Below are positions 7,840 to 64,000 of a stretch of DNA of 64,000 nucleotides, one piece after another. Each line of letters begins with the position of its first letter. The first letter of the stretch is position 1. Position numbers and translations under genes: made by a program. A model generated the notes under the pieces. The model was not told where the DNA came from. It saw only the letters and a program-made list of their open reading frames with translations, and ran no database searches. The stretch comes from Eledone cirrhosa (Eukaryota), in contig OZ024742.1 in the NCBI GenBank assembly GCA_964016885.1, positions 354,888,001 to 354,952,000 on the forward strand, written 5' to 3'.

Positions 7840-7900
<61 letters not shown>

Positions 7901-7901
<1 letters not shown>

Positions 7902-8034
7902 GTGGTTACACAACAGTTAGTTCACCATACCGAGAACAATTGTTTCACCTTCGCGGATCTTCAGGTCGGGATGAAGATCCGCGAAGGTGAAACAATTGTT
8001 CTCGGTATGGTGAACTAACTGTTGTGCAACCACT
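7901..8034. repeat. Fold-back inverted repeat (63-nt arms, 8-nt loop) carrying a hammerhead core, inserted in (TA)n
   Basis: 7901-7963 is the reverse complement of 7972-8034 (one mismatch). The minus arm reads CTGAAGATCCGCGAAGGTGAAACAATTGTT with palindromic stem III. Confidence 0.85.
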
Positions 8035-8109
8035 GCTACCTAACTCGTCCATTGGACTGAGTGCTCTACCACTACGGATATTACCTTCCAGTGTTCCACC
8101 ACTATATCT

Positions 8110-8149
<40 letters not shown>

Positions 8150-8633
8150 ATAATAATAAATGTGAAGACTAAAATCCAAAGAGGGCTCGATAAATATATA
8201 TCAAATATATAAGAACCGTAGAGCAAATATATACATATATATATATATATATATATTGTTATACATGGGGAGGGTCATATTGTTGTAATAATATTCCCAG
8301 TAATAATAATAGAACACACTCACTGGCTGGTTGGTTTTCACTTCTGAATCTTTTTATATCTCCACATTTTATTAATTTGGTCCTCAATGTTTACCATTGA
8401 GTGGCCAACGGTCAACAAATACAGATATAATATAGATATGAACACATATATATAGTCTAACAAAGTTCATTCGTTGCACATCTGCAACATCATCAGTGGT
8501 AATATTATGTTGCTCCTGTTTTATTGTCAATCTTCGCCATTTTTATTTTGTCTATTTATTTATTAATTTATTTATGTTTGTCTTCTTCAGTCCGACTCTC
8601 TACAGATACTACCAATTCCCCGCCGTAACAAAT

Positions 8634-8822
8634 AATTGTTTCTACTTTTGGCACAAGGCCAGCAATCAATTAACCAGTACATTACCGGTACTTTATTTTA
8701 TCGACTCCGTAAGGATGAAAGGCAAAGTGAACCGCGGCAGGATTTGAACTCAGACCGTAAAGGGACGTAACTATGCTGGAAAGTATGGCGTCCGACTCTC
8801 TACCGATACTGCCAATCCACCG
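8634..8822 (-). mobile_element. tRNA-derived SINE with Meta/MESC-like core
   Basis: A-box TGGCAGTATCGG, B-box GAGTTCAAATCC, core ctttgcctttcatccttacggagtcgataaaataaagtacc; further copies at 11280, 56480 and 63898. Confidence 0.85.
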
Positions 8823-10226: not shown

Positions 10227-11279
10227 GAGAGAGAGAGAGAGTGAGCGAGAGAAAGAGAAAGAGAGAGAGGGAGGGTTACATAGATAGATAGATAAAGAGA
10301 TATATTGTTAAAAGTATAGATATATATAAAAGCAGGTTTGTTTCAGTATACTTTGTAGCAGTTGTGATTTTCCTTTCAAATCTTTATGAATTGCGATACA
10401 AAATGTAAGAGTGAATCAGAAATAAGTTCTTTCTTACATCTACATATAATAAATTCACCCAAGTAAAACGGGAAATAAAACGTAAATACAACAATTCAGC
10501 CATTATAACTACTATTTTACGCGCCATGAATTAGGCAGTATATCGGATTTTTATTGAATTTTGAGATATGAGCAAAGCTTCTTTTCCTTTTAACCAAAAA
10601 CGTAGGCCTTTATATTGAAAGGAGGTTGTCTCTTTTATTCTCACCTCGCATATAGAAATCTTTCTCCTATTCTCTTCTCTGTACAATTGCATCTGTGCCA
10701 AATATAGTTTTAATCCTACTTACTCTTTATAATCTTTCATTTTAATAGATATTTCTGACCGGAAAGGTCACTACAGTTCATCTGGAGTATCGTTTTCTTT
10801 TCTATATACAACTCTTCTATTCCGCTTTCGACAAATACAGATTTATCAAAGACATCTCCAAGGCAACAGAAATCACTGAGATTCTGATTAATTTGCCACA
10901 ATGATTCAGGAAGATATTTGGATTTGATGTAGAAGATAGAGAGCAACAACTATGGAAGATTTTATAGTATTTAGCTTGGAAACAAAAGTTTCAGATTTGA
11001 AATAATTCTCGGATCAACTTTCAGTTTTCATTCAACTCGAGGCCAATATAACGAACATGTAACAATCTTATCTTCATTTTCCTACGTATCCTGACCTTTA
11101 AAATATCAAAACAAATTATTATTATAATCATTATTATTATTGTACTTATTGTTATTACTATAATTGCAGAGTTTCGTTGGGGTTGTTGAATTAAAGTACC
11201 AGTAATTTATTGACTTCCCCTCCCCTTCAAATTGCTGTCTTTGAGCCCAACAATTAATATTATTATTATCATTGTTAGA

Positions 11280-11460
11280 GAGTCGAACAACATACTTTGC
11301 ACAATGGAATTATGGCCTTTTACTTTCTGAGTTCAACTCCCGCCAAGTTTTGCTTTGCATTTCATGATTATGGGGTCGATAAAATAAAGTACCATTAACG
11401 CAGTAGGGTTGTTTAATTGATATTCCGCTATCCCAAATTAGTGTCCTTGAGCGTATAGTA
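11280..11460 (+). mobile_element. Degenerate tRNA-derived SINE copy
   Basis: ctgagttcaactcccgcc B-box and ggggtcgataaaataaagtacc core. Confidence 0.7.
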
Positions 11461-13282: not shown

Positions 13283-15873
13283 TCACCACCTCGATCTCCA
13301 CCACCCACGTCCACTTCTTAGACATCTCCGTCGCCTTCGACCCTTCCCACCACTCCCTCGTCACCTCCGCCTTCTTCAAACCCATCGACTCCCACTCCTA
13401 CATCGACTTCACCTATTCCCACCCCACACACACTAAACACTCTATTCCCTACTCCCAACGCCTCAGGATCCGCCGCCTCTGTAGACGAGATGCTGACTTT
13501 GAGTCCCAGGCCCTTTCCCTAGTCAGCCATTTCATCCGCAGAGGTTACTCCCCCTCTCTCGTCCTAACCGCTCTCACCCGCGCCCGTGCTGTCCACCGCT
13601 CCACCACCCTCACCCCACGCCACCGCACAACAACCCACCGTCTCCCCTTCCCCATCACCTACCACCCCTCCACCTACCCCTCCACCGCACCATCCTCCGC
13701 CTCTTCCGACGCCTCCAGTCCGACCACTCCACCTCCCACATCATCCCAGCCCCACCACTCCCCTCCTTCAAACGCGCACGGAATCTCCGCACCCTCCTCG
13801 TCCACAGCTCCCTACCCCCCAACCCACGCTCTCTTCCGCCACCCCCGGTTCCTTTCCCTGTTCTAGGCCCCGCTGCAACACCTGTCCCCACATCACCAAC
13901 ACCACCACCTTCCAGGGTCCCAACGGCCACTCTCTAACTGTCCGGCATGCCTTCCGCTGCACCTCCTCCAACCAAGTCTACGGACTTCGCTGCACTCCGT
14001 GCAGCGCGACTTACGTCGGGTAGAGTAGACGTCGCCTGGCGGACAGAATTACTGAGCACCTCCGCGATATTCGTCTCGATGGTAGTTCCCCCATCGCCCG
14101 CCACTTTGGTGCCCCTGGACATTCCGCACACCATCTCACAGACTGTGGCCTACTCCAATGCCACGGAACACCTGCCACTCTCCTAAGGGTCGAACAACGA
14201 ACCATCTTCACCCTACAGACCCACACTCCCCCGGGTCTGAACTCCCCACACTTATTCCTTTAGCCTTCCATCGCCGCCCTCCCCCCACACATATCCCCCA
14301 CTAACACCACTAACACACCCCTCCTTTTCTCCGCCCACCCCACAACTAACAATACTAACACCTCCACACCACATCCGACTACCCTTCCCCAACTAACATA
14401 CTAATATCCCTCCCTTCTTTTCCTCCACCCCTTCCTTATCACACGCACACACCCACCGGTACATATATACACGCGCTCACACTAAACAAACACCCTGCTA
14501 CCACCACTAACCTTCACCCCCACATATCCACCCCACCACCCCGCAACTAACATCACAAACACCCCCTGACCCCAAGCACACGAACACTCACACCCACTTA
14601 CACCACTCACTCTACACGCAACTAACATCACTAACACCCCCAACCCTACGCACACGAACACACACACCCTCTTACACCACCCACTCTACACACCCTACCA
14701 CCACTGACCCCCACTCACACTCAACCCTTTCACCACCTCCAGTATACTAACACCCACTAACACCCCCTTCACCACACACACACTCATCCAAACACGCACA
14801 CACACACCAGTACACTACACTCCCTCCATCGGGCCCCACATCCTTCTCTCCCCGCTCCACCCACACCCTTTCTCAAACACACATACTTCCCGCTAACACC
14901 TCTACTAATACACACACACCCTCTCCTCACTCCAACTTTCACACCTACCCATCCTCTCCCCTGTCCACAGCACCTCCGCACACACTGACACACCGACTTT
15001 CTTCACTTACCATTCCACCCTACTGCTGCTATATCTCTCTGACCACCTCCCCGCACACACAGACACACAACCCTCCTCCTGCCTTGACCCTCTGACCACT
15101 TCCTGTAGCGCGCGCACCCCACATCTCCCCTTTCCGACCAATTTCTTCACGGATTACACATATGTGAACCTTGATCCCGAGAATCTACCGCATCCCAAGG
15201 ATTTTACTCAGCATTCCACCACATCCTTTTACGGAATTACCTTTAGGACTCTCCCCCGGACATACACCCAAAAACATATTTTTCCCACACGCCACCTACA
15301 TCCACAACACGCATAAACACCACACACACACATGCGTACCACCACATATTTACACATTCAGCCTCCGAAATCCTCTCCCCTTACCCCTCTATCCACACAC
15401 TCACACACATTCCGACCTACACCCCACCCACACACACCTCTTCCTGAACATGCAACCCTGTTCTTCCCCCAACCCTTGCCTTCACATACACACACACACG
15501 TACATCTACACACACACACCACGTTCAGCCCTCCCCGCTCGGACACCCCGTCTCCCTCTCCCATTCAACCCGCCACCACCCCTACACGCCCCACACTCTC
15601 CCACCACCTGTTTTACTCCATTTTAATTTTATTTTGATCATGCCTTTATTTTTAATTTCATTTGCACCGTTTCCTCTCACTCCCCCTCCCTGTTTGCTAT
15701 ATGTCTCTCCAACACTCCCATACACACCCTTGGAACTCTCTTCCCACACACTGTTCACCTGAAGAAGGGCTTATGCCCGAAACGTCGTTCCCCACCACCA
15801 CCCCACTCTCAAGAGCGTGAAACTAATAAACCTTTGTTCGTACTGCCTCTATGTTTTGTTCCCGTTCAATTTT

Positions 15874-15877
<4 letters not shown>
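13283..15877 (+). mobile_element. C-rich Neptune-type PLE, 5'-truncated; same family as 48085-54505
   Basis: VHFLDISV..LVTSAFFKP..., GSFPCSRPRCNTCPHI...VYGLRCTPCSATYVG..RRLADRITEH with stops and frameshifts; C/A-rich 3' UTR; both ends abut (TA)n. Confidence 0.93.
15755..15790 (+). ncRNA. Minimal type I hammerhead ribozyme in pLTR
   Basis: CTGAAGA-A-GGGC TTAT GCCC-GAAAC-GTC; same motif at 48176-48204 and 52956-52983 on the minus strand. Confidence 0.8.
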
Positions 15878-15924
<47 letters not shown>

Positions 15925-15939
15925 ATATATATATATATA

Positions 15940-37007: not shown

Positions 37008-37012
<5 letters not shown>

Positions 37013-37215
37013 AACAAGTAAGACCCCGACGGCTGAGCTCAAGCCGTTTCGACGGTTAATTCTGTACTCAATTAGTACAGAATTAGCCGTCGAAACGGCT
37101 TGAGCTCAGCCGTCGGTGTCTTACTTGTTCCTATTACCCACTATACTACCCTAAGTATTGAGTACTTTGGTGCGTTATGGTCCACCTGGTTGCTTACCAC
37201 ATATCCTTCGTTATA
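37008..37215. repeat. Fold-back palindrome (37008-37134) plus tail; family also at ~60006-60172 and ~60466-60545
   Basis: Arms contain GAAACGGCTTGAGCTCAGCCGTC; the tail cctattacccact.tactac.ctaagtattgagtacttt is shared with 60090-60170. Confidence 0.8.
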
Positions 37216-39660: not shown

Positions 39661-40180
39661 TTGCGCGTAAGTGTGTGAGTGAGTATGTGTGTTTTTTTGT
39701 TTTTTTGTGAATGTGTCTGTTGATTTTTGGCATATAGTTGATTAGTTTAAGAGAAGTTCGAAGATAATAGTAAGATATGCACTCAGTATTTTGAATCTGT
39801 CTGCAGAATTCTCTAGACCTTTGTCACTTAGTAGAACCTTAATGACTTTAGCTTTTAAAGAATCTCCCTTTTCTTTAATTCTATCGACCATGACTGACCC
39901 CCCACTGATTTTATAGACATCTGTTAGCTTAAGAGAAACTTATTGACAAGGAATGGTATGCCATCCGGAACCTGTTTATAGAATTATGTCTGCCCTTGTT
40001 ACTCTAAAAACATAAATAAATAAAAATAAAAATAAAAATAAAAATAAACTATAGCTTTGTAGAATTAGCTTTTAATGAATTCCCTTTTCTATCAACCAAT
40101 GACCTGCACCCATCCCACTCCCCACCCTCTCCTACCACTTGTAGAGACCTATAAATACCATATTTATTTTTTGATACCCA

Positions 40181-40313
40181 GATTCCTGATGATTTCTAAT
40201 GAATGAAACAGTTCTAGTCCTGTAGAATCTCATCTATATTAAAACTGTTATACTCTGCTATGTATTGAGTACCTTACTTACTGTGGTAACCTCCGATTCA
40301 ACCCGGAATAACG

Positions 40314-45355: not shown

Positions 45356-46905
45356 TTAATTAGGTTTATAATATTTAAATGTTTTTTTTAGTTTATGATT
45401 ACACGATATAATTAATTCCTGTCGTTTATTTAATAGGATATCCTTAGATTTCATTATTTCAAATAGTTCTTGGGAACATAATCTACATTCATTTCTATTA
45501 TTTTGATAAGGGGTGGCTCTTTTGAGCACACTCCAGGTCAAATCATATTCTATATTCTTATTTTTATAACTATTGATTTTTTCTGCTAGAGATGTTGTAT
45601 TAGCCAGTGCGGCATTTTTAAAACTATGCTTGTGGGTATTAAACCTTGTCTTAAAATTGTTAGAGGTAGCTCCTATATATGAGCAAATAGAATATTTAGT
45701 TTTAACATTACATTTATAGACTATGTTGTTAACAAGACAATTCCCTTTTAATGGGCAGTTTGCTTTGTTTCTACAGTTACAACCTTTCGTTAATTCTGTA
45801 TTTGAGGAGATATTATGGTTAATTTGATGTACTGGTGGTATACTTATGGTTTTCTTACATTTATATGCATTATAGGCACTTATATTTTGTTTTATGTTAT
45901 TTGTTGTAGAGTATGAGAATTTAACTGTAGACCTATTTAAGATTTGATGGTATTTGTGGTTTGGCGGGAAGTTTTTCTCTAGGATATAAAAAAAATTTTT
46001 AGCAATATTATCCTTAATTTGTAAATTAAATGGAGCATTATACCAAGTAACCCGTCTATTACGGTTTCTATGTTGTTTATTATTTTTATTATTTTTATAG
46101 GTTGTATCGTGATTTTTACTAGGAGGATTAATGTTAATGATCTCACCACAACCATTTTTAGTTATATTTGTAGATTTAGGTGTTTTATCCTTTTTATTAG
46201 GAGTTTTATTATTAATATTTATTAGAGTTGTATGATGAGTAGTTTTTTGAGAGTTACTATACTTTATATTAGAAGATTTGGTATTTTGGGGTATAGTGTG
46301 GGTGGCATTTAGGTGTGTACTTTTCATTTGGTGTTTGTTGGTAATATTAGGTTGTATGCTTTCAGTATTTTTAGTAGAAGGTATATATTCTAATCTATTT
46401 TTGTGGCCACTTCTATCTAGAGCTTCGTTATAGAAGGTCGCATTTTTATCAAATACATCTTGGTTAGAAGAAAGGTTAGAAATTCTAAGTGATATATTAT
46501 ATGCAAGGTTTTTAAGGATAGATTTAGGGTGATTAGATTGTGAGTGTATGTAATGTAAGTTTTGGTTTGGTTTATGGTAAGGTTGGTAGATACCCGTAGC
46601 TAAATCTAAAGTTATATCTAGGAAATTTACTACTTTACTTGTTTTTTCAAAAGTAATATTAAGATTATAATAGTCTTTAAGGAAAGTTCTAATATGTTTT
46701 TTGTTTTTTTCAATTTCTGAAAGGCTAAGGTTGTTAGAAAGAAGAAGACAGTCATCACGATATAAACCACCTTTGAAGTGGGGAAAGGAGGCATTTATGT
46801 TGAAAAGGAGAAAGAGGCCCACAAGATCAGTAATTTGGGCGGAATCGCTTGAACCCATAGTAATATCAAATAGATTACTATATGTGTTTCTGGTCCAGTA
46901 TTCAT
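45356..46905 (-). CDS. Naiad-type PLE polyprotein, C-terminal ~515 aa (RT palm/thumb, Cys linker, GIY-YIG), uninterrupted but lacking its N-terminus
   Basis: FDITMGSSDSAQITDLVG, GGLYRDDCL, VNFLDITLDL, SNHP, GCNCRNKANCPLKGNC, IVYKC..SYIGAT..FKTRFNTH, ECRLC, LLNKRQEL..CNH. Confidence 0.9.
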
Positions 46906-47262
46906 TCAGACAACGGACAACCTGATTTATGCCGTACGGTGTTAAGACAAGCACGTCACCTTTTTGTTCAACACTGACACATGAAGGATGTACTAGTTTC
47001 AAGCTTCTTAGCTATCATCAGCACCGTATACCCTTCTGCCAGATGGTTGAACGTTCGAAAGTATATACTTCCTTATGAAAATTAACGGCTGAGCAGCCTA
47101 ATTTGCATATCGAGTGAGTTCAGTCGACCAGGCGTACCGAAAACGATAAGTTGTATAGAATGAAACGAAATTTCATATCTCACTCTTAGTACGGCACTTA
47201 CTTAAATGTAAGCATGTATGTATACGTACATATATATATGTATACAGACGTACAGTAGCATG

Positions 47263-47330
<68 letters not shown>

Positions 47331-47510
47331 CAGGTACACATATATATATGTACGTATCAGTTTAGCGGACATTTATTATAACGCCCGCTTTGTCCGTTTG
47401 TAAACAAACGTACAGCCTGATTTATGCCGTACGTTGTTAAAGCAACCACGCCACCTTTTTGTAAGTGCCGTACTAAGAGTGAGAAATGATATTTCGTTTC
47501 ATTCTACTAC
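46906..47510 (-). mobile_element. Retrozyme-like repeat of the 24565 family (>1 unit plus inverted tail), abutting the Naiad 5' truncation
   Basis: Intact HHR GGTG-CTGATGA-TAGCTAAGAAGCTT-GAAACTAGTA-CATC at 46987-47025; unit restarts near 47410; 47460-47507 is inverted. Confidence 0.85.
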
Positions 47511-47512
47511 AA

Positions 47513-47575
<63 letters not shown>

Positions 47576-47696
47576 GTAGGTCCCGGGTTGAGTCGGGGAT
47601 AACCACAGTAAGTAAGGTACTCAATACATGGTAGAGTAAAATGAGCTTCCTGAAGGTTTCATCTTAATGAAACAGTACTAGTCCTGCAGAAGCTCC

Positions 47697-47746
<50 letters not shown>

Positions 47747-47996: not shown

Positions 47997-48086
<90 letters not shown>

Positions 48087-49038
48087 ATGAAAAATTGAAC
48101 AGGGACAGAACAGAGAGGCAGTACGATAAATGTTTATTAAATTCACGCTCAGGAGAGTGGGGGGTAGGTGGGGGACGACGTTTCGGGCATAAGCCCTTCT
48201 TCAGGTGAGAGTTCAAAAGATGTGTAGGGGAGTGGTGGAGAGACATGTAGCGAAAGGAAACGGTGCGAATGAAAAATTAACAAATAAAGACAAAAATATA
48301 ATAAATAATAAATAAAAATAAAGCATGATCAAAATACAAGGAATGAGAACATTTAAAAATAAAGGCATGATCAAAATAAACTGAAATTAAAAGGGGGGTA
48401 AACAGGTGGTGGAAGGGTGTGGGGTGAGTAGAGGTGGTGGCGGGTGGAGTGGGGAGAGGGAGACGGGGTGTCCGAGCGGGGAGGGCTGAAGGTGGTGTGT
48501 GTGGTTAGGTGTGCGTGTGTGTGTGCGTGTGTATGTGAAAGTGAGGGTTGGGGGAAGAACGGGGTTGTATGTTCAGGAAGGTATGTGTGGGGGCTGTTTT
48601 TGTGGGTCGGAGGATCTGTGCGTGTGTGGATAGGGGGGGTGGGGGGAGAGGAATCAGGGGGCTGAGGGTGTAAATATGTGGTGGGAAGCACGTGTGTGTG
48701 GTTTAAGCGTGTTGTGGGTGTGGGTGGCGTGTGGTTAAAAAAAATGTTTGGGGTGTGTGTGTGGGTGAGTTATATAGGTGATGGTGTAAGAGGATGGTTG
48801 AAAAGTGGTAAGTTACACGGATGTATGGTGATTTTGGTTGGATGTCAATAACGCGTGTGGGTAATCGAAGAAGCGGTGGTCGGAAGAGGAGAGATGTGGG
48901 GTGCGCGCGCAACAGGAAGTGGTCAGCAGTGGAAGTGCTGTGGTCAGTTGGTGCTGAGACAGTGGTCGGAAGGGCATAGCAGCAGTCGGTGGAATGGTAG
49001 GGAGGCGAGGATGGGTAGTTGTGAGAGTTGGAGTGAGG

Positions 49039-49075
<37 letters not shown>

Positions 49076-49549
49076 GTAGGGGTGTTAGTGGGATGAGTGA
49101 GTGTGGAGCGGGGAGAGAAGGGTGTGTGTGGTTCTATGGAGGGAGTGTGGTGTACTGGTGTGTGTGTAGTTTGGTGAAGAGGTGTTAGTGGGTGTTAGTA
49201 TACGGGAGGTGGGGAGGAGTGGAATGCAGGTGTGAGTGGGGGTTAGTGGGGGTAGGGTGTGTAGAGTTGGTGGTGTACGAGGGTGTGTGGGTACGTATGC
49301 GTGCGGTTGGAGGGTGTTAGTGATGTTAGTTGCGTGTGGGGTGGGTGGTGTAAGTGGGTGCGTGTGATAAGGAGGGAGAGGAGGAGAAGAGGGGAGGGAA
49401 GGGATGTTAGTATGTTAGTTGGGGAAGGGTGGTCAGATGAGGGGTGGAGTGGAGGTGTTAGTATTGTTAGTGTGGGGTGGGCGGTGAAAAGGAGGGGTGT
49501 GTTAGTGGTGTTAGTGGGGGATAAGTGTGGGGGAGGGGGTCGGTCGAAC

Positions 49550-52343
49550 GCTGAAGGAATAAGGGTGGGGAGTTCAGGCCGGGGGGAGTGTGGGTCTGTA
49601 AGATGAAGACAGTACGTTGTTCGACCGTAAGGCGATGGGCGGGTGTTCCGTGGCACTGGAGTAGGCCACAGACTGTGAGATGGCGTGCGGAGTGTCCAGG
49701 GCCACCAAAGTGGCGGGCGATGGGGGAACTGCCCCCGAGACGAATGTCCCGGAGGTGCTCCGTGACTCGGTCCGCCAGGCGACGTCCCGTCCGTCCAACA
49801 TAAGTCGCGCTGCACTCCGTGCAACGAAGCCCGTAGACTAGGTTGGAGGAGGTGCAGCGGAAGGTATGCCGGACCGAGAGAGGGTGGCCGTTGGGACCCT
49901 GGAAGGTGGTGGTGTTGGTGATGTGGGGACAGGTGTTGCAGCGGGGCCTAGAACAGGGGAAGGAACCGGGGGGGAAACGGAGCGTGGGTTGGGGGGTAGG
50001 GAGCTGTAGACGAGGAGGGTGCGGAGATTGCGTGCGCGTTTGAAGGAGGGGAGAGGTGGGGTTGGTAAGATGTGGGAGGTGGAGGGGTCGGACTGGAGGC
50101 GTCGGAAGAGGCGGCGGATGGTGCGGTGGAGGGGTAAGGTTGAGGGGTGGTAGGTGATGGGGAAGGGGAGACGATGGGTGGGTCTGCGGTCGCATGGGGT
50201 GAGGGTGGTGGAGCGGGGGATAGCACGGGCGCGGGTGAGAGCGGTGTGGACGAGAGAGGGGGGGGGTAACCTCTGCGGATGAAATGGCTGACTAGGGAAA
50301 GGGCCTGGGACTCGAAGTCAGCATCTCGGCTACAGAGGCGGCGGATACTGACAAGTTGGGAGTAGGGAAACGAGAGTTTAGTGTGTGTGGGGTGGGAAGA
50401 GGTGAAGTCGAGGTAAGAGTGGGAGTCGGTGTGGTTTGAAGAAGGCGGAGGTGACGAGGGAGTGGTGGGAGGGGTCGAAGGCGACGGAGATGTCCAAGAA
50501 GTTGACGTGGGTGGTGGAGATAGAGGTGGTGAAGTGGAGGGAGGGGTGGAAGGAGCAGAAGAAGGAGAGAAAGGAGTCGAGCTGTACTCGGGTGAGGATC
50601 ATGGCTCCGATACAGTCGTCAATGTAACGACCGTACAGTTCGGGCGTGGGGCCGGTGTACTGGGCAAATATTTGGGCCTCAACATGGCCAACAAAAAATT
50701 GGCATAGTTCGGGCCCATTCGTGTGACCATGGCTACCCCCGTGACCTGTTGGTAAAACTCTCCCGAGAAGGAGAAACAATTTAGGGTGAGGACCAGCTCG
50801 GCGAGGCGAAGGAGGGTGGGGGTGACTGGCATGGTCGAGGGGCAAAGGTCGAGGTAGTGTTTGAGGGCGCGAAGGCCGTCGGCGTGGGGGATGACGGTAT
50901 AGAGGGACTTGATGTCTAGGGTGAAGAGGAATGGCTGAGGGCCGGGTAGGTAGGTGAAGGAGTCGAAAAGGCGTAGGGCGTGGTTGGTGTCAGAGATGTG
51001 GGAGGGGAGGGTGGTGACAAGGGGGGCGAGGAGGGCGTCGAGAAAGGCGGAGATGAGTTCGTTGGGGCAGTTGCAAGCGGAGACGATGGGGCGGCCGGGG
51101 TTGTCGGGTTTGTGGAGTTTGGGGAGGAAGTAGATGGTGGAGGTGCGGGGGGTGCGGACGATGAGGTGGGAAGCGGTGGGGGGAGGAGGGAGGAGGCGAT
51201 AAGGTCTTTGATGGTGGAGGAGACTTGTTGTTGGTAGAGGGGGGTGGGATCGGAGGGTAGAGGGCGGTAAAAGAGGGGATTACAGAGCTGCCTGAGGGCT
51301 TCGGCCGTGTAGAGGTCCGTGCGCCATACCACCACGGCGCCTCCCTTGTCCGCCGGTTTGATGACGATGTCATCTCGGCTACGGAGGGAGCGGAGAGCGA
51401 GGTGTTCGCCCCGTGAGATATTGTGCCGTTTGGAACGGTGGCGGAAGTCGAAACGATTTACTGCGCTACGGCTGGCATCGACGAAGGCGTCCAGGGTGCT
51501 AAATTGCTCTGGGGCCGGCGTCCAAGATGATGGTCGTCGGCCCAGGGCGAGAAACGGGTCTGGGGCGTCCGGAGCCGGTGGCGTTCGGCTGAAATGTGCC
51601 TGTAGCTTAGTGCGTCGCACGAATCGCTCGACTTCCGTTCGGGTTCGGGACTCGTCGCTGAGCGGAGTGTGGGGTATGAAGCGAAGGCCTCTACTAAGGA
51701 GTGAGCGCTCAGGTGCGGAGAGGGGGAGGTCAGGGGGTATGGTGACAACAAGGGGTGGGGTTTGGGTGTTTGGGGACGGAAGGGAGGGTGTGGTGAGGGG
51801 TGGAGATTGGGTGGGGATGGGGGTCGGGGGAGAGTTGGGGAGTGGTGGGCGTATGGGGGTGGGCGGGTGGTGGTGGATGAGGGGGGAGTGAGTGTAGCTT
51901 GCGGGCTTTGGTGGAGCTGAGGAACGAGAAGAGGTTGTGGTTGAGGTTGTGGATGAAGGAGAGGATGGCTTGGGCGAGGAGGGGGTGACAGGTGGAGTAA
52001 AGGCGGAGGAGGGTGGGGGTCAGTTGGTGGTCAAGTAGGCGGAGGGTGGAACGGGAGGCGCGGATGGAGTTGCGCATCAGAAGGCGTGTGGATCGGGTGA
52101 GGATACGTTGCGCGGAGGGGGAAGCAGCGGGGGAGGGGTGGAAGTGTAGACGGAAGCCAAGGGGGATAAGGTGGTGGCGGAGGCAGTGGCTGAGGAAATG
52201 GATGTGGCTGGAGTGCCGGGTTTTGGCGAAGAGAAGGTAGGAGAGTTGAAGGGCGGAGGGGAGATAGCAGGGTGGAAGGAGGGGGTGAGGAAAAGTTTGA
52301 GGCGATTGTGGAGTTGGTGGAGAAAGGATCTCAGGTTGGCCAT
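49550..52343 (-). pseudogene. Frameshifted PLE polyprotein ORF (RT + GIY-YIG)
   Basis: MANLRSFLHQL; SHIHFLSHCLRHHLIPLGF; IKPADKGGAVVVW; FLPKLHK..PGRPIVS; TLDIKSLYT; QQVTGVAM.TRMGPNYAN; RYIDD; CSRPRCNTC; LVYGLRCTECSATYVGRTGRRL. Spread over several frames. Confidence 0.92.
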
Positions 52344-52504
52344 GATGGGCGTTGGGTGAAAGCAGGGTGAGGGATGAGAGGGCGGGGGTGTGAAGCGGGT
52401 GGAGTGAACGAAGGGGTGAGTGCGAAGGATAGGCAGAGACGGGGAAGGGAAAAAGAAACAGAAACACGTAGGGAGGGGGGAGTAAACACCGGAAAATTAA
52501 AGAC

Positions 52505-52652
52505 AAAAAATCATAAAGGTAATAACACAGGCGATCGTGAACAAAAAAATCACAGACATATCATAAAGGTAATGACACAGGCGATCGTGAACAAAAAAAT
52601 CACAGAAATATCATAAAGGTAATGACACAGGCGATCGTGAACAAAAAATCAT
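52505..52652. repeat. ~50-nt tandem repeat (x3) in the PLE 5' leader
   Basis: atcataaaggtaat(a/g)acacaggcgatcgtgaacaaaaaa occurs three times. Confidence 0.92.
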
Positions 52653-54619
52653 AGAAATACGATTGTAAGAACACAGGCAAAGAATCATATACGGAAAAAA
52701 AGGCGTACGGTAACAAAATCAAACAGAGGTAATGCGTGGAAGGAAAGACGAAGTGTGGGAAGGTGTGTAAAGTTCGGAGAAAAGTCACGGCGGATTAGAT
52801 CGGGGTTGAGCCGGTTGTTAAGTTAAGTTCCAAGGATGGAGGCCGTGTGAGCGTGTGTTATGTATAATGAAAAATTGAACAGGGACAGAACAGAGAGGCA
52901 GTACGATAAATGTTTATTAAATTCACGCTCAGGAGAGTGGGGGGGTAGGGGGGGGGACGTTTCGGGCATAATCCCTTCTTCAGGTGAGAGTTCTAAAGAT
53001 GTGTAGGTGAGTGGTGGAGAGACATGTAGCGAAAGGAAACGGTGCGAATGAAAAATTAACAAATAAAGACAAAAATATAATAAATAATAAATAAAAATAA
53101 AGCATGATCAAAATACAAGGAATGAGAAAATTTAAAAATAAAGGCATGATCAAAATAAACTGAAATTAAAAGGGGGGTAAACAGGTGGTGGAAGGGTGTG
53201 GGGTGAGTAGAGGTGGTGCCGGGTGGAGTGGGGAGAGGGAGACAGGGTGTCATGTGGGGAGGGCTGAAGGTGGTGTGTGTGGTTAGGTGTGCGTGTGCGT
53301 GTGTGTGTATGTGAAAGTGAGGGTTGGGGGAAGAACAGGGTTGCATGTTCAGGAAGGTGTGTGTGGGGGGTGTTTTTGTGGGTCGGAGGGTCTGTGCGTG
53401 TGTGGATAGGGGGTGGGGGGAGAGGAATCAGGGGGCTGAGGGTGTAAATATGTGGTGGGAAGCACGTGTGTGTGGTTTAAGCGTGTTGGGGTGTAGGTGG
53501 CGTGTGGATAAAAAAAATTTGTTTGGGGTGTGTGTGTGTGGGTGAGTTATATAGGTGATGGTGTAAGAGGGTGGTTGAAAGTGGTAAGTTATACGGATGT
53601 ATGGAGATTTTGGTTGGAAGTCAAAACGCGTGTGGGTAATCCAAGAAGCGGTGGTCGGGAGAGGAGAGATGTGGGGTGCGCGCGCAACAGGAAGTGGTCA
53701 GCAGTGGAAGTGCTGTGGTCAGTTGGTGCTGAGTCAGTGGTCGGAAGGGCATAGCAGCAGTCGGCGGAATGTTAGGGAGGCGAGGATGGGTAGGTGTGAG
53801 AGTTGGAGTGAGGAGGGTGTGTGTGTGTGTGTGTGTGTATTAGTAGGGGTGTTAGTGGGATGAGTGAGTGTGGAGCGGGGAGAGAAGGGTGTGTGTGGTT
53901 CTATGGAGGGAGTGTGGTGTACTGGTGTGTGTGTAGTTTGGTGAAGAGGTGTTAGTGGGTGTTAGTATACGGGAGGTGGGGAGGGGTGGAATGCAGGTGT
54001 GAGTGGGGGTTAGTGGGGGTAGGGTGTGTAGAGTTGGTGGTGTACGAGGGTGTGTGGGTACGTGTGCGTGGGGTTGGAGGGTGTTAGTGATGTTAGTTGC
54101 GTGTGGGGTGGGTGGTGTAAGTGGGTGCGAGTGATAAGGAGGGGGGAGGAGGAGAAGAGGGGAGGGAAGGGATGTTAGTCTGTTAGTTGGGGAAGGGTGG
54201 TCAGATGAGGGGTGGAGTGGAGGTGTTAGTATGGTTAGTGTGGGGTGGGCGGTGAAAAGGAGGGGTGTGTTAGTGGTGTTAGTGGGGAATAAGTGTGGGG
54301 GAGGGGGCGGTCGAACGCTAAAGGAATAAGGGTAGGGAGTTCAGGCCGGGGGGAGTGTGGGTCTGTAAGATGAAGATAGTACGTTGTTCGACCGTAAGGC
54401 GATGGGCGGGTGTTCCGTGGCACTGGAGTAGGCCACAGACTGTGTGATGGCGGGCGGAGTGTCCAGGGCCACCAAAGTGGCGGGCGATGGGGGAACTGCC
54501 TCCGGGATAAATGATATTAATAAAAGGAAACTATATTTATAAAACCATATTTATTATTTTATATATAGTTCAAGGGTATTGGTGCTTCTATAACTCTCTC
54601 GGCAGAAGCGAAGGGATAT

Positions 54620-54664
54620 GTAATTTGACAACCGCTCATGAGCGGGGAAACGGCCGTCGATTAC
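54620..54664 (+). ncRNA. Hammerhead-like motif (U3-A8 type, one-nt register deviation)
   Basis: GTAAT-TTGACAA-CCGCTC AT GAGCGG-G-GAAAC GGCC GTC-GATTAC. Confidence 0.6.
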
Positions 54665-54791
54665 TTCACTTTGCGTTTTAAGAGTCCAAGTAAGTGACGC
54701 AATCACTACTTTAAAATTCATAGCGAATCATTTTCAAATTGAATTTAAATAAATATACAGTATATTATGAAATATACTATACGTACATTCA

Positions 54792-54822
<31 letters not shown>

Positions 54823-56155: not shown

Positions 56156-57290
56156 GTGTGAGTATACGTGTGTGTGAGTGTGTATGTGTATATTTTGTAT
56201 ACGTGAGTTTGAGTCCCTGTGCCCATACCCATATGTGTGTATGGGTATATGTATGTGTATGTATATATGTAAAACACCTTCTACATTGCCTCTCACCTTC
56301 CCCTCATCTCTGTCGTTCGCCACCCCCACCGATACTCCCCCAATCTCCATATTCGTGTCTGCATGCGCGCATGCACATACAAGTGTGTACATATACATAT
56401 GGCTGTGTATGAGAGTGTGTCGATATGTGTGGGCAAGGATGAGCGTATGTTTTTTGTGCTGTGTGTGTTTATACAACAATATTGGATTGGCAGTATCGGG
56501 AGAGGGTCGGACGCCATGCTTTCCAGCATAGTTACGTCCCTTTACGATCTGAGTTGAAATCCCGCCGAGGTTGACTTTGCCTTTCATCCTTACGGGGTCG
56601 ATAAAATAAAGTACCAGTAATGAACTGGAAAATTGCTGGCCTTGTGCTTAAAGTAGAAACAATATATGTGCACATATATACATATATGTGTGCGTATACG
56701 TATATACAAAGTATCTGTCAGACGAAGAGCGTCTAGCTATGTGTCTATGTAAGGACCTGGATGCCACCAATACATCCACTACACCACCACAAACGCCGCT
56801 ATCACACCGACGGCACCACTACCACACCCCCACACACACGCCAACCCGTCTACTGAAAATCCACTAACCTCATACCACAGCCCATCCCACTAAGCAACCA
56901 TAACCACCACCATATCATCACATCCTCCCCCACATCTCTACACGCCAAGGCCAACCCACCACCACCACACCGCAGCCCATCTCATCCACGGACCGTCACC
57001 AATATCTCACCATCACACCCACCTCCATATACACTACAGGCCAGTACATCGCCTTGATCCTTCCCACCAATCAAAACATCTCTTTTTGTCAAACTCTTGA
57101 AACTCTGACTTTACCACATAGCATGTATTTCATTTTCTTATAGCATTTCAAGAGGGTCCGTCGAGCTGCCGATTATTGAGTCGGGTAGGATCGACATAGA
57201 TCTAACCTTGAGCTGATCAGTGGCGAAACGCGGGTCACCTATCAATAAATGCAATGAAGGAATAATCAATCGTCTTTTTTATCCTTTCTC
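54825..57290 (+). repeat. C/A-rich low-complexity tract with degenerate tandem units, possibly a PLE 3' UTR/pLTR
   Basis: Repeated gcccg.atttgtat.atcatgccgca and cacc.t.gcccatctcaa.gaa motifs; ends GAAACGCGGGTC..aataaa before (TC)(TA)n. Confidence 0.45.
56480..56663 (+). mobile_element. tRNA-derived SINE
   Basis: ggattggcagtatcgg..gtcggacg...gagttgaaatcccgccgaggttgactttgcctttcatccttacggggtcgataaaataaagtacc. Confidence 0.88.
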
Positions 57291-57309: not shown

Positions 57310-57682
57310 ATAAATGTAAGTATGTATGTATACGTACATACATATATGTATACAGACGTACAGTACTATGTATATATATACATACATGCACACATATATA
57401 TATGCACATATCGTTCCTGTGTCAGTGGTGAACAAAAAGGTGACGTGGTTGCGTAAACACTGCACGGCGTAATTCAGGCTGTTTGTTTGTTTACAAACAA
57501 ACAAACCGAGCATTATAATAAATGTTCGGCAAACCGATATATATGTATGCATGTATGTATATATACACATGCTACTGTACGTCTGTATACATATATGTAT
57601 GTACGTATACATACATACATACTTACATTTAAATAAGTGCCGTACTAAGAGTGAGAAATGAAATTTCGTTTCATTCTATTCC

Positions 57683-57686
<4 letters not shown>
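57310..57686. mobile_element. Partial, internally inverted copy of the 24565 retrozyme-like family (no HHR core retained)
   Basis: gtgccgtactaagagtgagaaatgaaatttcgtttcatt and gagcattataataaatgttcgg are shared with 24565-26125; 57312-57408 is inverted relative to 57540-57631. Confidence 0.8.
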
Positions 57687-57845: not shown

Positions 57846-58094
57846 AGTTTACATATATTTATACCCACTTTCAAATCCCCAGGCACTGAAGAGTGCTCTG
57901 ATTAGTGGTCACCTTGTATCAGAAACGAACACACACACCCTCTCTTTCTCTCTCCCTTTCACATTATACACCCATACATATCCCCCCGCCTATATATATA
58001 TATATATATCACGATAAATTAACGGAGCCATAGACTCTCGCTATTCTCTGTCAATAATGTGTTCAAAGAAAAGGAATCTTCAACTCTTTGAAAT

Positions 58095-58686
58095 ACAATA
58101 TGTTGAAAAGGTAACACACCAGAGAAACATAGTGTGCCATCAATAAAACATGGAAAAATCACCAGTGTATGGAATCTATAACCTATAAAAGGCAGGGTAA
58201 ACACACAATAATTAAAAAATATAAATTAAAATGTATATACGCACCCCTATAACTATATAACCCACGCGTACAAATCCAAAGAGATCTGTTTCACCAGGAA
58301 GTTGTTGACTGAAATGGAATAGCCTATGATTCATCAGCGCGTGCAAGGCTATACGCGGGAGAGAGATGTCGACAGCTCTCTCCCGTATGTAGATGGACAT
58401 TCCCTTTAGATTCTCTTAGAGTTGTCTGAAATGTATAGCCTTGCACGCGCTGATGAACTATAGGCTATTCCATTTCAGTCAACAATTTCCTGTCGAAACA
58501 TATCTCATTGGATTTGTACGCGTGTGTTTTATAGTTATAGAGGTGCGTATATACAATTTAATTTATATTTTTAATTATTGTGTCTCCTGCCTTTCATATT
58601 TTATAGATTCCATACGCTGGTGGTGTTTCCCTGTTTTATTGATGGCGCACTATCTCTCTCTAGTGTGTTACCTTTTCAACATATTG

Positions 58687-58688
<2 letters not shown>
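58095..58688. repeat. Inverted repeat (~255-nt arms) with a hammerhead-like core in each arm
   Basis: 58095-58354 is the reverse complement of 58433-58688; CTGATGA at 58450 and GAAAC at 58495. Confidence 0.82.
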
Positions 58689-58726
<38 letters not shown>

Positions 58727-59841: not shown

Positions 59842-60009
<168 letters not shown>

Positions 60010-60623
60010 GGAAAATGTATGACCCGACGGCACAGCTCAAGCTGTTTCGACGGCTATTTCAGTCCACAAATGTATGGGGTCATACATTTTCCTATTACCC
60101 ACTCTACTACTCTAAGTATTGAGTACTTTGATGCGTTATCGTCCATATGGTTGCTTACCTCAACTCCTTAGTTATATATATATATATATGTGTGTGTGTG
60201 TGCATATATAACAAACGGTCACCATTATATTTTGCAAATATTCAAAAGAAACTACAATCGTCATCTCCTCTCTGCTTTGTTTAGTTTCTTTCTGTTTTGT
60301 CATTTCTCCATTTGAATACCTGTTTCGTTCAATAGGTTTTACTGCCTTGCTTGTGCAAGTAAAATATATACATACATAAAACACTCCACATGTAAATACG
60401 TATATAAATACATACATACATACATATATACATACAGTATATAAATATATATATATATATATATATAGGAACAAGTATGACCCGACGGCAGAGCTCAAAC
60501 CGTTTCAACGGCTAATTCTGAACTGCCGCCAATCAAACAGATACACACACACAACACACACAAACACACACGCACGCACACACATACACACACACACACA
60601 CACACATACACACAGACACACAG

Positions 60624-60654
<31 letters not shown>

Positions 60655-60844
60655 CGTAGGTCCCGGGTTGAGTCGGGGATAACCACAGTAAGTAAGGTAC
60701 TCAATACATGGCAAAGTAAAAAAAAAAATGATTTTATAGAAGGAGCTTCTACAGGACTAGTACTGTTTCATTCAGATGAAATCTTCCTGAAGATTTCATC
60801 TGAATGAAACAGTACTAGTCCTGTAGAATCTCCTTCTATAAAAT

Positions 60845-60881
<37 letters not shown>

Positions 60882-61420
60882 AAAATAGGGAGAAGAATAC
60901 TGCAGGTTGCACATGGATAACATGTTATAAAATGAGTCCCTCATCAGTGATTTGCCAACGATCATAGATATTTCATTGCATTAAAAATCATATACCTCAC
61001 GTTTGTACCATAATAACTAAATTAAGTTATTAGGACAATTAAAACGCGTAAAGCGAGTGAGACAAGTAAACAACAAAGATAAAAGCTAACCGTAGATAGG
61101 AAGAGGCACAAGCTACATAGTTATTCTATCAGCATAAGCTGGGTGAATATATGAGCGCGTAGAAAATAGACCTTTCGAGATGAATCCAATGTAAGAAAGA
61201 AGGAAATTGTTTTCCAATGTAAGAAAGAAGGAAATTGTTTTCGTTACTTTGGTATGTTATGTGTTAGATTTTGCCTACCACAATGTTCAATTTGTCAAGT
61301 TATTTAAACGTATTTTATTACTCTAAGGACCTACCTTGTCGAGTGCTTTGCTAAGTCATTCATATAGAGGCCGAATTTGCGTGCACACCGCCAGAGATTC
61401 GATTTCACTAAGTATCAAAT

Positions 61421-61455
<35 letters not shown>

Positions 61456-62256
61456 TTTGTTCCTTACCAAATTTCCTTCGTTATATATATATATAGAGAG
61501 AGAGAGAGATTCCTGATGATTTCTAAAGAATGAAACAGTTCTAGTCCAGTAGAATCTCATCTATATATATTTATATATTTTAAAAAAATTGATGTAATTC
61601 ATGTCATGAAATCAACGTGCATTTTCCTTACAGGAGTAAGGGAACATTTTTAGAATAAGGAAATACAAATTTAGACGATAAAGCCCTTTATTGATAAGGC
61701 AGTTATACATGTTTCAAGGACGACATTGATTATGCAATACAGCGAAGAAATTAGTGCCATACTCTCTTCAGACAGCGTCTTACATAATAAAGTTACCGTC
61801 AAGGAGGTAATCCAAAATTGAAGTGACAAAGGGATTGGATAAACAGCGGTGTTCATTAATCAAATTTCCGTTCCCGTGTGAAGTTCAATTCATGCCAACA
61901 GGTCTGCGCAAGCGTAAAGGTAGGGTATATATAGCTTGTTACTAATGTAAATTATACAGCGATGATCATCCCCTCCTCGCTTATAGTAGCATAGTGGCAG
62001 TCAGCCAATCCCGAATCCAGCCGATATTGTGCTCGCCGAAGGACAGAATGCTGTGGTAAAGTGATATTATGAGTTATATTTGCGTTAATACTACCCACTT
62101 ATCTGCCTAATTTGGGGTCAATATATAATGGTATCCTAATGAAGGTAAATAGGCAAAATTAACAGTTATTAATTGTAGCAAATTAAAGAATACAAGGTAT
62201 ATAATGTGATAACTTAGACAAAAACTAGTAAATATAATCCTCCATCGAATGAATTA

Positions 62257-62380: not shown

Positions 62381-62384
<4 letters not shown>

Positions 62385-63500
62385 TGATGGTTAGCGGAAA
62401 TTATAATATTTCCTCTGTCTCAAATTTTGAATGACCCGCCAAAAACCGGGGGTTATTTCCCTTGCTGGAAATAACACGTGACAACTAAATACACAATACG
62501 CTGCAGCTAGCGGCAACATTTAGCTTCTCGCCCCGTTCTTTGGTAGAACGAAAACCTGTTGATGAACTGAATCCTCTGTTAGATCACGAATACCACGAGC
62601 TTGCCAGTTACGTAAGTCTATATTTGATTTCGGATTCATAGAAACACTTTAAACGCATAACGTTTATTTGTCCAGGTGTATTTTTCTCAACCTGTTAGTT
62701 CTTTCGTTACTTTGGTATATTGTGTGTTAGATTTTACCTACCACAATGTTCAATTTGTCAAGTTATTTAAACGTATGTGATTACTCTAAGGACCTACCGT
62801 GTCGAGTGCTTTGCTAACTCATTCATATAGTAGGCCGAATTTGCTTACACACCGCCAGAGATTCGATTTTACTAAGTATCCAATTATATTATTCTCTCCT
62901 AGATTTAATAATTAACTAATTAATTTAATTAGACAATTCTGTTGATTGGTAAATTGTTTGTATTTGTTTAATAACATCTGGTCGAGACCTTATTCTGATG
63001 GTTAGCTGAAATTATAATATTCCCTTTGTATAACATGTTGAATGACCCGCCAAAAACCGGGGTTTATTTCCATTGCTGGAAATAACACGTGACAACTAAA
63101 TAACGATACGCTGCAGCTAGCGGCGACACTTAGCTTTTCGCCCCGTTCTTTGGTAGAGCGAAAAGCTGTTGATGAACTGAATCCTCTGTTCGATCATGAA
63201 TACCACGAACTTGCCAGTTACGTAAGTCTGATATTTGATTTCGGATTCATAGAAGCACTTTAAACGTATAACGTTTGATTTGTCCAGGTGTATTTTTCTC
63301 AACATGTTAGTCATTTCGTTACTTTGGTATATTATGTGTTACATTTTGCCTACCACAATGTTCAATTTGTCAAGTTATTTAAACGTATTTTATTACTCTA
63401 AGGACCTACCTTGTCGAGTGCTTTGCTAAGTCATTCATATAGAGGCCGAATTTGCTTGCACACCGCCAGAGATTCGATTTCACTAAGTATCCAATTATAT
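62381..63500 (+). repeat. Non-coding tandem repeat, ~611-nt unit (about 1.8 copies); partial copy at 61240-61425
   Basis: 62382.. and 62993.. both start ttctgatggttagc.gaaattataatatt and stay colinear; flanked by (TA)n. Confidence 0.9.
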
Positions 63501-63897
63501 ATATATATATGTATATATATTTTTTTGTTCACATGAAATAGGTTTAATACTAGGCTTAATTCACTTAGACAATAGAGTTGACTACCCCCCGCAAATAGAA
63601 TTACTTCATGGTCTTGATATTATGTTTTGGTAATGGAAATTATAGTTATCAATACGAATGAAAAGTAGGAATTGAAACCCTGATTTTAAGTAAATAAGGA
63701 ATACATCGTAAAAAGTGGAGCGTTAACATTTAAAAAGCCAATAAGTTAATATCATCCTTCATCACTTGAAATTAGCAACGAAAAGCAATAAAATGTATGA
63801 AAACATTGATAAATCAATGAAAGTAACAAAGAAAAAACCTAATAATAACATAGTGATAGAGGAAAGAGATTAAAAAAATATACACAAAAATACATAA

Positions 63898-64000
63898 CTG
63901 TTTCTACTGTGGGACAAGGCCAGCAATTATCCAGTGCATTACTGGTACTTTATTTTATCGACCCCGTAAGGATGAAAGGCAAAGTTAACCTCGGCAGGAT
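63898..64000 (-). mobile_element. tRNA-derived SINE, truncated by the window end
   Basis: Matches 8638-8742. Confidence 0.85.

Follow-up and report, generated by a model that had tools for sequence, protein, structure and literature searches.

What sets the 3' ends of retrotransposon copies that sit in a TA microsatellite? The question is raised by a 64,000-nt stretch of Eledone cirrhosa DNA (assembly GCA_964016885.1, contig OZ024742.1, positions 354,888,001 to 354,952,000 of the forward strand; hereafter the window), which is rich in AT microsatellite and contains P1, a decayed Penelope-like retrotransposon (PLE) that lies on the minus strand as a partial tandem at 54513-48087 and runs into (TA)n at its 3' end. 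An earlier note on this DNA had proposed that such elements join (TA)n precisely at an internal TATA of their own sequence. We find that TA microhomology at one of the two known PLE 3' end sites is real and statistically supported, and that it is short and non-universal. The parts of P1 (ORF, open reading frame; UTR, untranslated region; pLTR, pseudo-long terminal repeat) and its relative P2 are as follows.

52867-54513, minus strand: upstream unit of P1, 5'-truncated within the GIY-YIG region, forming the 5' pLTR; 95.7% identity to 49746-48079.
52863-52866, minus strand: internal TATA, followed by CATA, at the junction of the pLTR and the next unit; the tail-less 3' end site (microhomology 4 nt).
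52344-52862, minus strand: read-through after the TATA, comprising a putative tail region and the 5' UTR of the full unit.
49554-52343, minus strand: decayed PLE ORF in five frame pieces including the N-terminus; tblastn spans residues 22-904 of P0001.
48087-49746, minus strand: 3' pLTR (end of the ORF and C-rich 3' UTR).
48177-48204, minus strand: hammerhead-like core (CUGAAGA, 4-bp stem II, GAAA) from a motif scan; second copy at 52983-52956.
48064-48086: (TA)n target adjoining the 3' end of P1.
13284-15877, plus strand: P2, a diverged, 5'-truncated relative of P1 that has the same end site and runs into (TA)n at 15878.

The pLTRs of P1 are a 1.65-kb direct repeat (54513-52860 versus 49746-48079; 53 substitutions in 1642 aligned columns), which allows the end of the element to be read against its own internal copy. 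The internal copy reads ...caatttttcat/TATAcataac (TATA at 52866-52863, minus strand; the slash marks the junction) and the terminal copy ...caatttttcat/TATATATA from 48086, running into (TA)n at 48086-48064, which gives 4 nt of microhomology, with seven of the first eight bases in TA phase. The four 3' junctions on which the earlier note had relied all exist: besides P1, the 316-nt unit (family H) carries (AT)5 at 33261-33270 and its array ends at 33577 (10 nt); the 611-nt unit (family I) carries an internal TATAT at 62885 and ends at 63496 and 61421 (5 nt); and the 434-nt unit (family G) ends at 26123 on an internal ATATAT (6 nt).

We then asked how such matches compare with chance. Families were collected and junctions anchored by inspection throughout the window (n = 14 families), and TA-phase microhomology was counted as the bases shared between the element's internal copy and the flanking (TA)n at the 3' end. 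One junction per family entered the test, a well-anchored one being chosen where a family had several ends; P2, which is not independent of P1, and family O (ends at 771, 8146, and 37310), whose read-through copy is ambiguous, were excluded. The main null drew random junctions from each element's own surrounding sequence (local null), and a conservative null always took the better of the two TA phases (best-phase null). Microhomology was 4 nt for P1, 10 for H, 5 for I, 2 for G, 5 for C, 3 for D, 2 for E, 1 for F, 1 for J, 0 for K, 5 for M, 3 for L, 3 for X, and 2 for N. The sum of 46 nt compares with 15.4 expected under the local null (p 2.3e-5), and at least 2 nt were shared in 11 of the 14 families against 3.6 expected. 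The ten families absent from the earlier note sum to 25 nt versus 11.0 expected (p 0.009, local null), and the best-phase null gave p 0.005 for all 14 families.

Several results weigh against reading this enrichment too strongly. Under the best-phase null the ten unlisted families are not significant (p 0.18), and microhomology is only 0-3 nt in 9 of the 14 families. The mapping of junctions to internal TA runs is not confirmed as a general rule. The 14 families are not fully independent trials, because tail motifs are common to them. Three 5' truncation ends that adjoin (TA)n also match it, by 1, 3, and 4 nt, so generic end-joining may contribute some of the microhomology. Besides the low values of F, J, and K, one family-C end (60848) shares 0 nt; another 3' end of the 316-nt family, at 32542, falls 34 nt beyond the start of its internal TA run, with microhomology 2; and three ends of the 434-nt family (24565, 47515, and 57686) map to a separate site downstream, where the match is 1-3 nt. 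The remaining alternative ends also differ from those tested (G 6 nt at 26123, D 2 nt at 60006, C 4 nt at 47700). The effect is modest, and most of the architecture around it is already in print.

These second ends belong to a wider pattern, for which the copies listed here provide the coordinates.

32543-33576: family H (316 nt), two inverted arms, of which the plus arm stops at the TA run (33577) and the minus arm carries a further 34-nt tail, ending at 32542.
62383-63495, plus strand: family I (611 nt), partial tandem with internal TATAT at 62885; solo 3' fragment at 61239-61420.
24566-26122: family G (434 nt, hammerhead-bearing), two-arm, with the minus arm stopping at the downstream site (24565) and the plus arm at the internal ATATAT (26123).
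46912-47514 and 57313-57685: further copies of G.
40180-40313, plus strand: read-through copy of family C, internal TATAT at 40235, 79-nt tail; the family is also found at 47575-47699, 60655-60847, and 61507-61561.
37011-37211: family D, two-arm, internal TAT at 37132, 80-nt tail; also at 60007-60172, and an end at 60467.
15940-23248: M, a large inverted PLE pair; plus arm ends at 23249, minus arm continues past a TATAT at 16075 and ends 136 nt on (15939).
28729-29174: family X, two-arm, internal ATA at 28828, 100-nt tail; solo copy at 33938-34058.
7899-8103: family E, two-arm, microhomology 2, 66-nt tail.
34082-34493: family F, two-arm, microhomology 1, tail of ~160 nt; a counter-example.
58010-58689: family J, two-arm, microhomology 1, 83-nt tail; a counter-example.

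Many insertions in the window consist of two inverted arms facing outward into (TA)n. Among those with this layout, 15 picked by eye show an offset of 15-161 nt between the 3' ends of the arms on their common sequence (direct alignment for 13; inferred from family copies for N and C1): one arm stops at an upstream site, and the other continues past it to end behind a tail. A masked, unselected scan returned 11 TA-flanked inverted pairs, 10 of them clearly asymmetric and one, K (old, 72% identity), nearly symmetric. The claim that ends fall precisely at an internal TATA holds at only one of the two 3' end sites; the other is the known PLE tail end. Several single-arm copies that lack a partner also stop at the tail-less site (P1, P2, and those ending at 34059, 61562, and 60467). 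A tailed P1 end was not found in the 64-kb window, where tails are present in the two-arm insertions of other families; the putative P1 tail is weakly similar to that of family C (shuffle p 0.007), one of five tails tested giving p<0.01.

Within a family the internal TA run is near-constant (C 5, 4, and, by eye, 5 nt; H 10 and 10), and ends shift between neighboring TA sites (D 37010 versus 60006; G 57312 versus 26123). The short repeats mostly bear hammerhead-like cores by motif scan, among them G at 25091 and 25525, and family H gave an HH9 hammerhead match of 31.1 bits (E 8e-4), below the gathering score of 52; an intact core was not found by motif scan in family I. A search of the whole window against Rfam returned mostly microsatellite-driven microRNA matches among the 150 of 194 listed, plus one sub-threshold hammerhead. 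The motif T(A/G)TYGAGTRC occurs in the tails of C, D, and X, with a stem-loop fold in C and D, and a MAFFT alignment of nine tails was sensible only for C, D, and E. The same motif lies 85 nt before the cited end of family I, which may therefore be of the downstream type.

Fold-back self-priming was considered as a source of the inverted arms and was rejected for family H only, where each arm holds sequence that the other could not supply by fold-back. Since neither arm is derivable from the other in this way, two priming events are favored for H; origin of its two arms from the same RNA was not demonstrable from their differences (3-4-3 and 4-2-4). In several two-arm insertions the center of inversion falls on the CUGA core of the hammerhead (60787, 7964-7970), which suggests that the reverse transcriptase (RT) stalls at the ribozyme.

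P1 itself retains recognizable coding motifs. The RT motifs DKG (ADKG) and RYIDD lie at 51362 and 50629, a CX4CxxC linker motif at 49955 (likewise at 13859), and, C-terminally, a GIY-YIG endonuclease (EN) of CCHH type, VYG-CxxC-YVG with His residues downstream, at 49838. The RT piece has 437 homologous proteins at E<=1e-10, and the EN piece is 44% identical to the C-terminus of P0098, which carries PF01541. Pfam identified no family in the broken ORF pieces of P1; over 13 ORF pieces from the window it gave one weak GIY-YIG match (21205-21771, within element M). The predicted protein features given in PMC8557442 identify P1 as a C-terminal EN-bearing (EN+) PLE with a linker of the Neptune/Nematis type, and "Neptune-like" serves as a lead only, as the homologs found bear no clade names. 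Assignment to Naiad/Chlamys (N-terminal EN, DKA, no hammerhead) was ruled out by the C-terminal EN and the DKG motif, and assignment to the Hydra clade (DKT, CxCX5C, CCHH absent) by DKG, CX4CxxC, and the CxxC within GIY-YIG. By motif scan, a hammerhead-like core with stem II is found ~120 nt before the junction in both P1 pLTRs, and in P2 as well. An Rfam search of 48090-48400, which includes the core, gave no match at E<=10, and stem I is absent from the minimum free energy folds.

PLEs from other genomes provided a small independent comparison. A scan of a contig collection yielded 14 loci, of which only L008 and a solo copy on L001 permitted a TA-junction test; the PLE-bearing contigs L001-L012 are apparently eukaryotic DNA inside bacterial genome assemblies. 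L008 is a near-intact PLE with an unbroken 1005-aa ORF and pLTRs that are 99% identical. Its 3' end reads ...ttttttga/ATAT into (TA)n and the internal copy reads ATATTTAT, a match of 4 nt with seven of eight bases in phase (local P 0.068), and the solo copy on L001 stops at the same base. An AATAAA in L008 (~63-68) sits in the loop of hammerhead stem II. A close RT relative in another genome, a family represented on four contigs, has two 3' end sites ~100 nt apart in AT-rich flanks that are not microsatellite, and is useful as a control; read-through of the downstream 3' end site was not found in these loci.

L001 2662, L002 ~2215, L004 ~2485, L005 ~2146: positions of the RT-relative family.

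We lean slightly toward the view that (TA)n-targeting PLEs and their short hammerhead-bearing partners insert by internally started target-primed reverse transcription (TPRT), in which the protein selects the target and pairing is only accessory and sets the register. The template would be a tandem or circular RNA in the order ribozyme, site A, tail, site B, a layout that is seen in the DNA. The GIY-YIG EN with its zinc finger-like linker would, judging from the literature, pick and nick (TA)n on one or both strands, and the RT would start at one of two positions bracketing the tail, set by protein and RNA structure; the basis for this is the two end sites in the window together with two RT starts in vitro for another PLE. 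At the start site, chiefly the tail-less one, the nicked TA end may then pair with UA-phase bases over 1-5 nt (up to 10); such pairing would set the register, and selection would retain UA at the start site, where the enrichment is observed. Where both strands prime, one per site, the complementary DNAs would join head to head and leave inverted arms with a one-sided tail. A single priming that runs beyond a full unit would leave a partial tandem of the kind seen in P1.

A more specific version of this mechanism is possible, and we offer it tentatively: microsatellite-targeting EN+ PLEs may carry a telomerase-like mini-template, a conserved UA-phase alignment site upstream of a stem-loop that would match the repeat cut by their EN, and in each insertion one RNA would be primed twice, by one target strand at the homology-aligned site and by the other at the tail end. 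If so, it would account for the long-unexplained combination of one-sided tail and inverted arms, it would unify EN+ PLEs with the telomeric priming of Athena/Coprina, and the alignment site should co-vary with the target repeat across families.

Pairing does less than the earlier note had asked of it. It had been invoked to explain why (TA)n is targeted, and this fails because ends with a match of 0-2 nt still lie in (TA)n; the (TA)n bias has instead been ascribed to the EN and its linker (PMC8557442). Nor is pairing needed to explain the absence of recognizable target-site duplications, which are undetectable because the target is a microsatellite, as already set out in PMC8557442.

The proposal must be set against the literature on PLE priming. 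In the only in vitro PLE study, on the Poseidon-clade element PAc/Poseidon_Ac (PMC11167929), initiation took place at RNA sites non-homologous to the cut DNA, and homology-free priming is there called a PLE hallmark, a claim with which the TA microhomology contrasts and which counts against our proposal. The two systems share an internal RT start downstream of the hammerhead, two sites bracketing the tail, and an AT-rich target, both strands of which are cut and extended in PAc/Poseidon_Ac; the elements described here differ in a tail-less site enriched for TA-phase bases, tails of 15-161 nt, and a zinc finger-like linker. PLEs of the Neptune and Nematis type (CX2-5CxxC linker) and the (TA)n-targeting Naiad and Hydra elements (PMC8557442) also show partial tandems with pLTRs, inverted 5'-truncated arms, and a tail at one end, and with the PLEs of that study our elements share the (TA)n preference, undetectable target-site duplications, and the linker motif. 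The tail is described as "present only at one end" in PMC8557442 and PMC3846280.

The closest precedent for the proposed mechanism is provided by the EN-less PLEs Athena and Coprina, which use short reverse-complement telomeric repeats beside the ribozyme (per PMC8557442), a short internal match to the target repeat near the hammerhead that aids attachment. Those elements lack an EN and act on telomeric overhangs, whereas here an EN is present, the (TA)n is interstitial, and the match is 1-5 nt. Non-LTR retrozymes (PMC4209133; preprint 10.64898/2026.07.22.740005) are short tandem or inverted hammerhead repeats held to be non-autonomous partners of PLEs; G, H, C, E, F, J, and X resemble them. 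The short families have the two-end-site layout of an autonomous PLE, and neither "tail" nor "microhomology" occurs in the available text of that preprint. Among other elements, four matching nucleotides are enough to prime TPRT by L1, with mismatches tolerated (PMC3649969), and SART1Bm, which has a repeat as its target, is able to initiate within its 3' UTR (PMC7265360); both have an unrelated RT and an APE-type EN, and their normal priming is at a 3' poly(A) rather than at a set position inside a tandem RNA. Earlier publications already cover internal initiation, tails, inverted arms, the preference for (TA)n, hidden target-site duplications, and retrozyme partners. We found no report of a TA match at the tail-less PLE end in literature searches or in the accessible text of PMC11167929, PMC8557442, PMC3846280, PMC9977147, PMC4209133, the retrozyme preprint, PMC3649969, and PMC7265360; Arkhipova 2006, Pyatkov 2004, the Athena papers, and Repbase may bear on it.

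Telomerase RTs have PLEs as their sister group. If a short RT start site that matches the target is retained in (TA)n-targeting PLEs, homology-free priming would be clade-specific, and PLE priming would resemble the alignment used by telomerase and Athena. Because a (TA)n target gives a known pre-insertion sequence, priming can be read here from genomes alone, and TA-matched end sites help to place element boundaries in repeat curation.

The strongest rival to internally started, pairing-assisted TPRT is a homology-free RT start at the tail site, after which the TA-specific EN cuts the internal TA of the element's own DNA copy and joins that end to the target. Priming by TA pairing, as the earlier note had it, fits the enrichment, the L008 junction, and the shifting of ends among TA sites, but EN cutting predicts the same DNA junctions, and it would also account for the 1-2 nt matches and the one-sided tail. 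Craig et al. (PMC8557442) hold that the tail most likely comes from EN-mediated resolution, and "microhomology" has 0 occurrences in the accessible text of that paper; Frangieh et al. (PMC11167929) report homology-free priming and cuts within the element's own pLTR, and note that the tail was earlier shown to be needed for EN recognition. Even so we judge such resolution rather unlikely, given that in vitro the RT starts at either end of the tail (PMC11167929), that the single-arm copies at the tail-less site have no partner, and that downstream ends carry some TA match too (G 1-3 nt, H 2 nt).

A donor transcript might instead read through into its flanking (TA)n and prime on a long (UA)n, the internal TA being a relic of tandem formation. 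The (TA)n that follows the 3' end of P1 makes such a transcript possible, and both the 10-nt internal run of H and the degenerate TA-like hexamer at the X/P1 junction (54514) agree with it. We think this quite improbable: it predicts arms that often end alike, and none of the 15 do (K being near-symmetric in the masked scan); the internal runs are short and stable within families; and an AATAAA lies ~45 nt upstream of the 3' junction in P1 (48138-48133) and P2 (15825-15830 region), where polyadenylation would deprive the mRNA 3' end of the junction.

It is very improbable that the match is mere chance, with a fixed, homology-free RT start landing on TA because the genome is AT-rich and full of microsatellites. 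Perfect TA runs of at least 8 nt make up 9174 of the 64,000 bases, the families are related, and the unlisted families miss significance under the best-phase null; against this stand the local-composition results (p 2e-5 for all families, 0.009 for the unlisted ones), the surroundings of P1, which are only 51% AT (local P 0.013), and the recurrence of the match in L008. Loss of the tail after insertion, by deletion or slippage between the internal TA and the flanking (TA)n from ends that all began at the tail end, is extremely improbable, for although microhomology-mediated deletions in PLE copies have been described (PMC3846280) and one G unit has an internal deletion beside TA-rich sequence, random loss would leave many two-tailed insertions where none was seen (15 by eye plus the masked scan), and the young L008 copy is already without a tail.

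Further observations concern the neighborhood of these elements. The 5' truncation point of P1 (54514) meets the 3' end of an X-family fragment by way of the degenerate hexamer. Next comes an inverted segment, related to the 316-nt family, whose end lies in (TA)n at 54791, and 54514-54822 is a composite or nested insertion. At 45356-47514, a minus-strand, 5'-truncated PLE ORF is joined directly to about one full 434-nt-family unit and then to an inverted arm ending at 47515, which may mean that a single insertion involved switching between an autonomous RNA and a non-autonomous one as template. At 15878-15939 and 1946-1958 one TA run serves the 3' ends of two different insertions, one per side, so that the same target has been used repeatedly. 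A perfect 28-bp tandem duplication (61185-61242) lies directly 5' of the solo fragment of the 611-nt family. The 200-N gap within 32604-32959 probably reflects either the collapse of a tandem unit or a spurious scaffold gap, because an exact 78-nt overlap flanks it on both sides. A minus-strand fragment at 29585-30212 sits inside a long (TA)n array, and we presume from its translation that it resembles the C-terminal part of the reverse transcriptase of a long interspersed nuclear element. Finally, a dispersed repeat with a B-box-like motif (8632-8819, 11277-11398, 56483-56669, and 63892-64000) has no (TA)n flank and may, by its resemblance, be a tRNA-derived short interspersed nuclear element.

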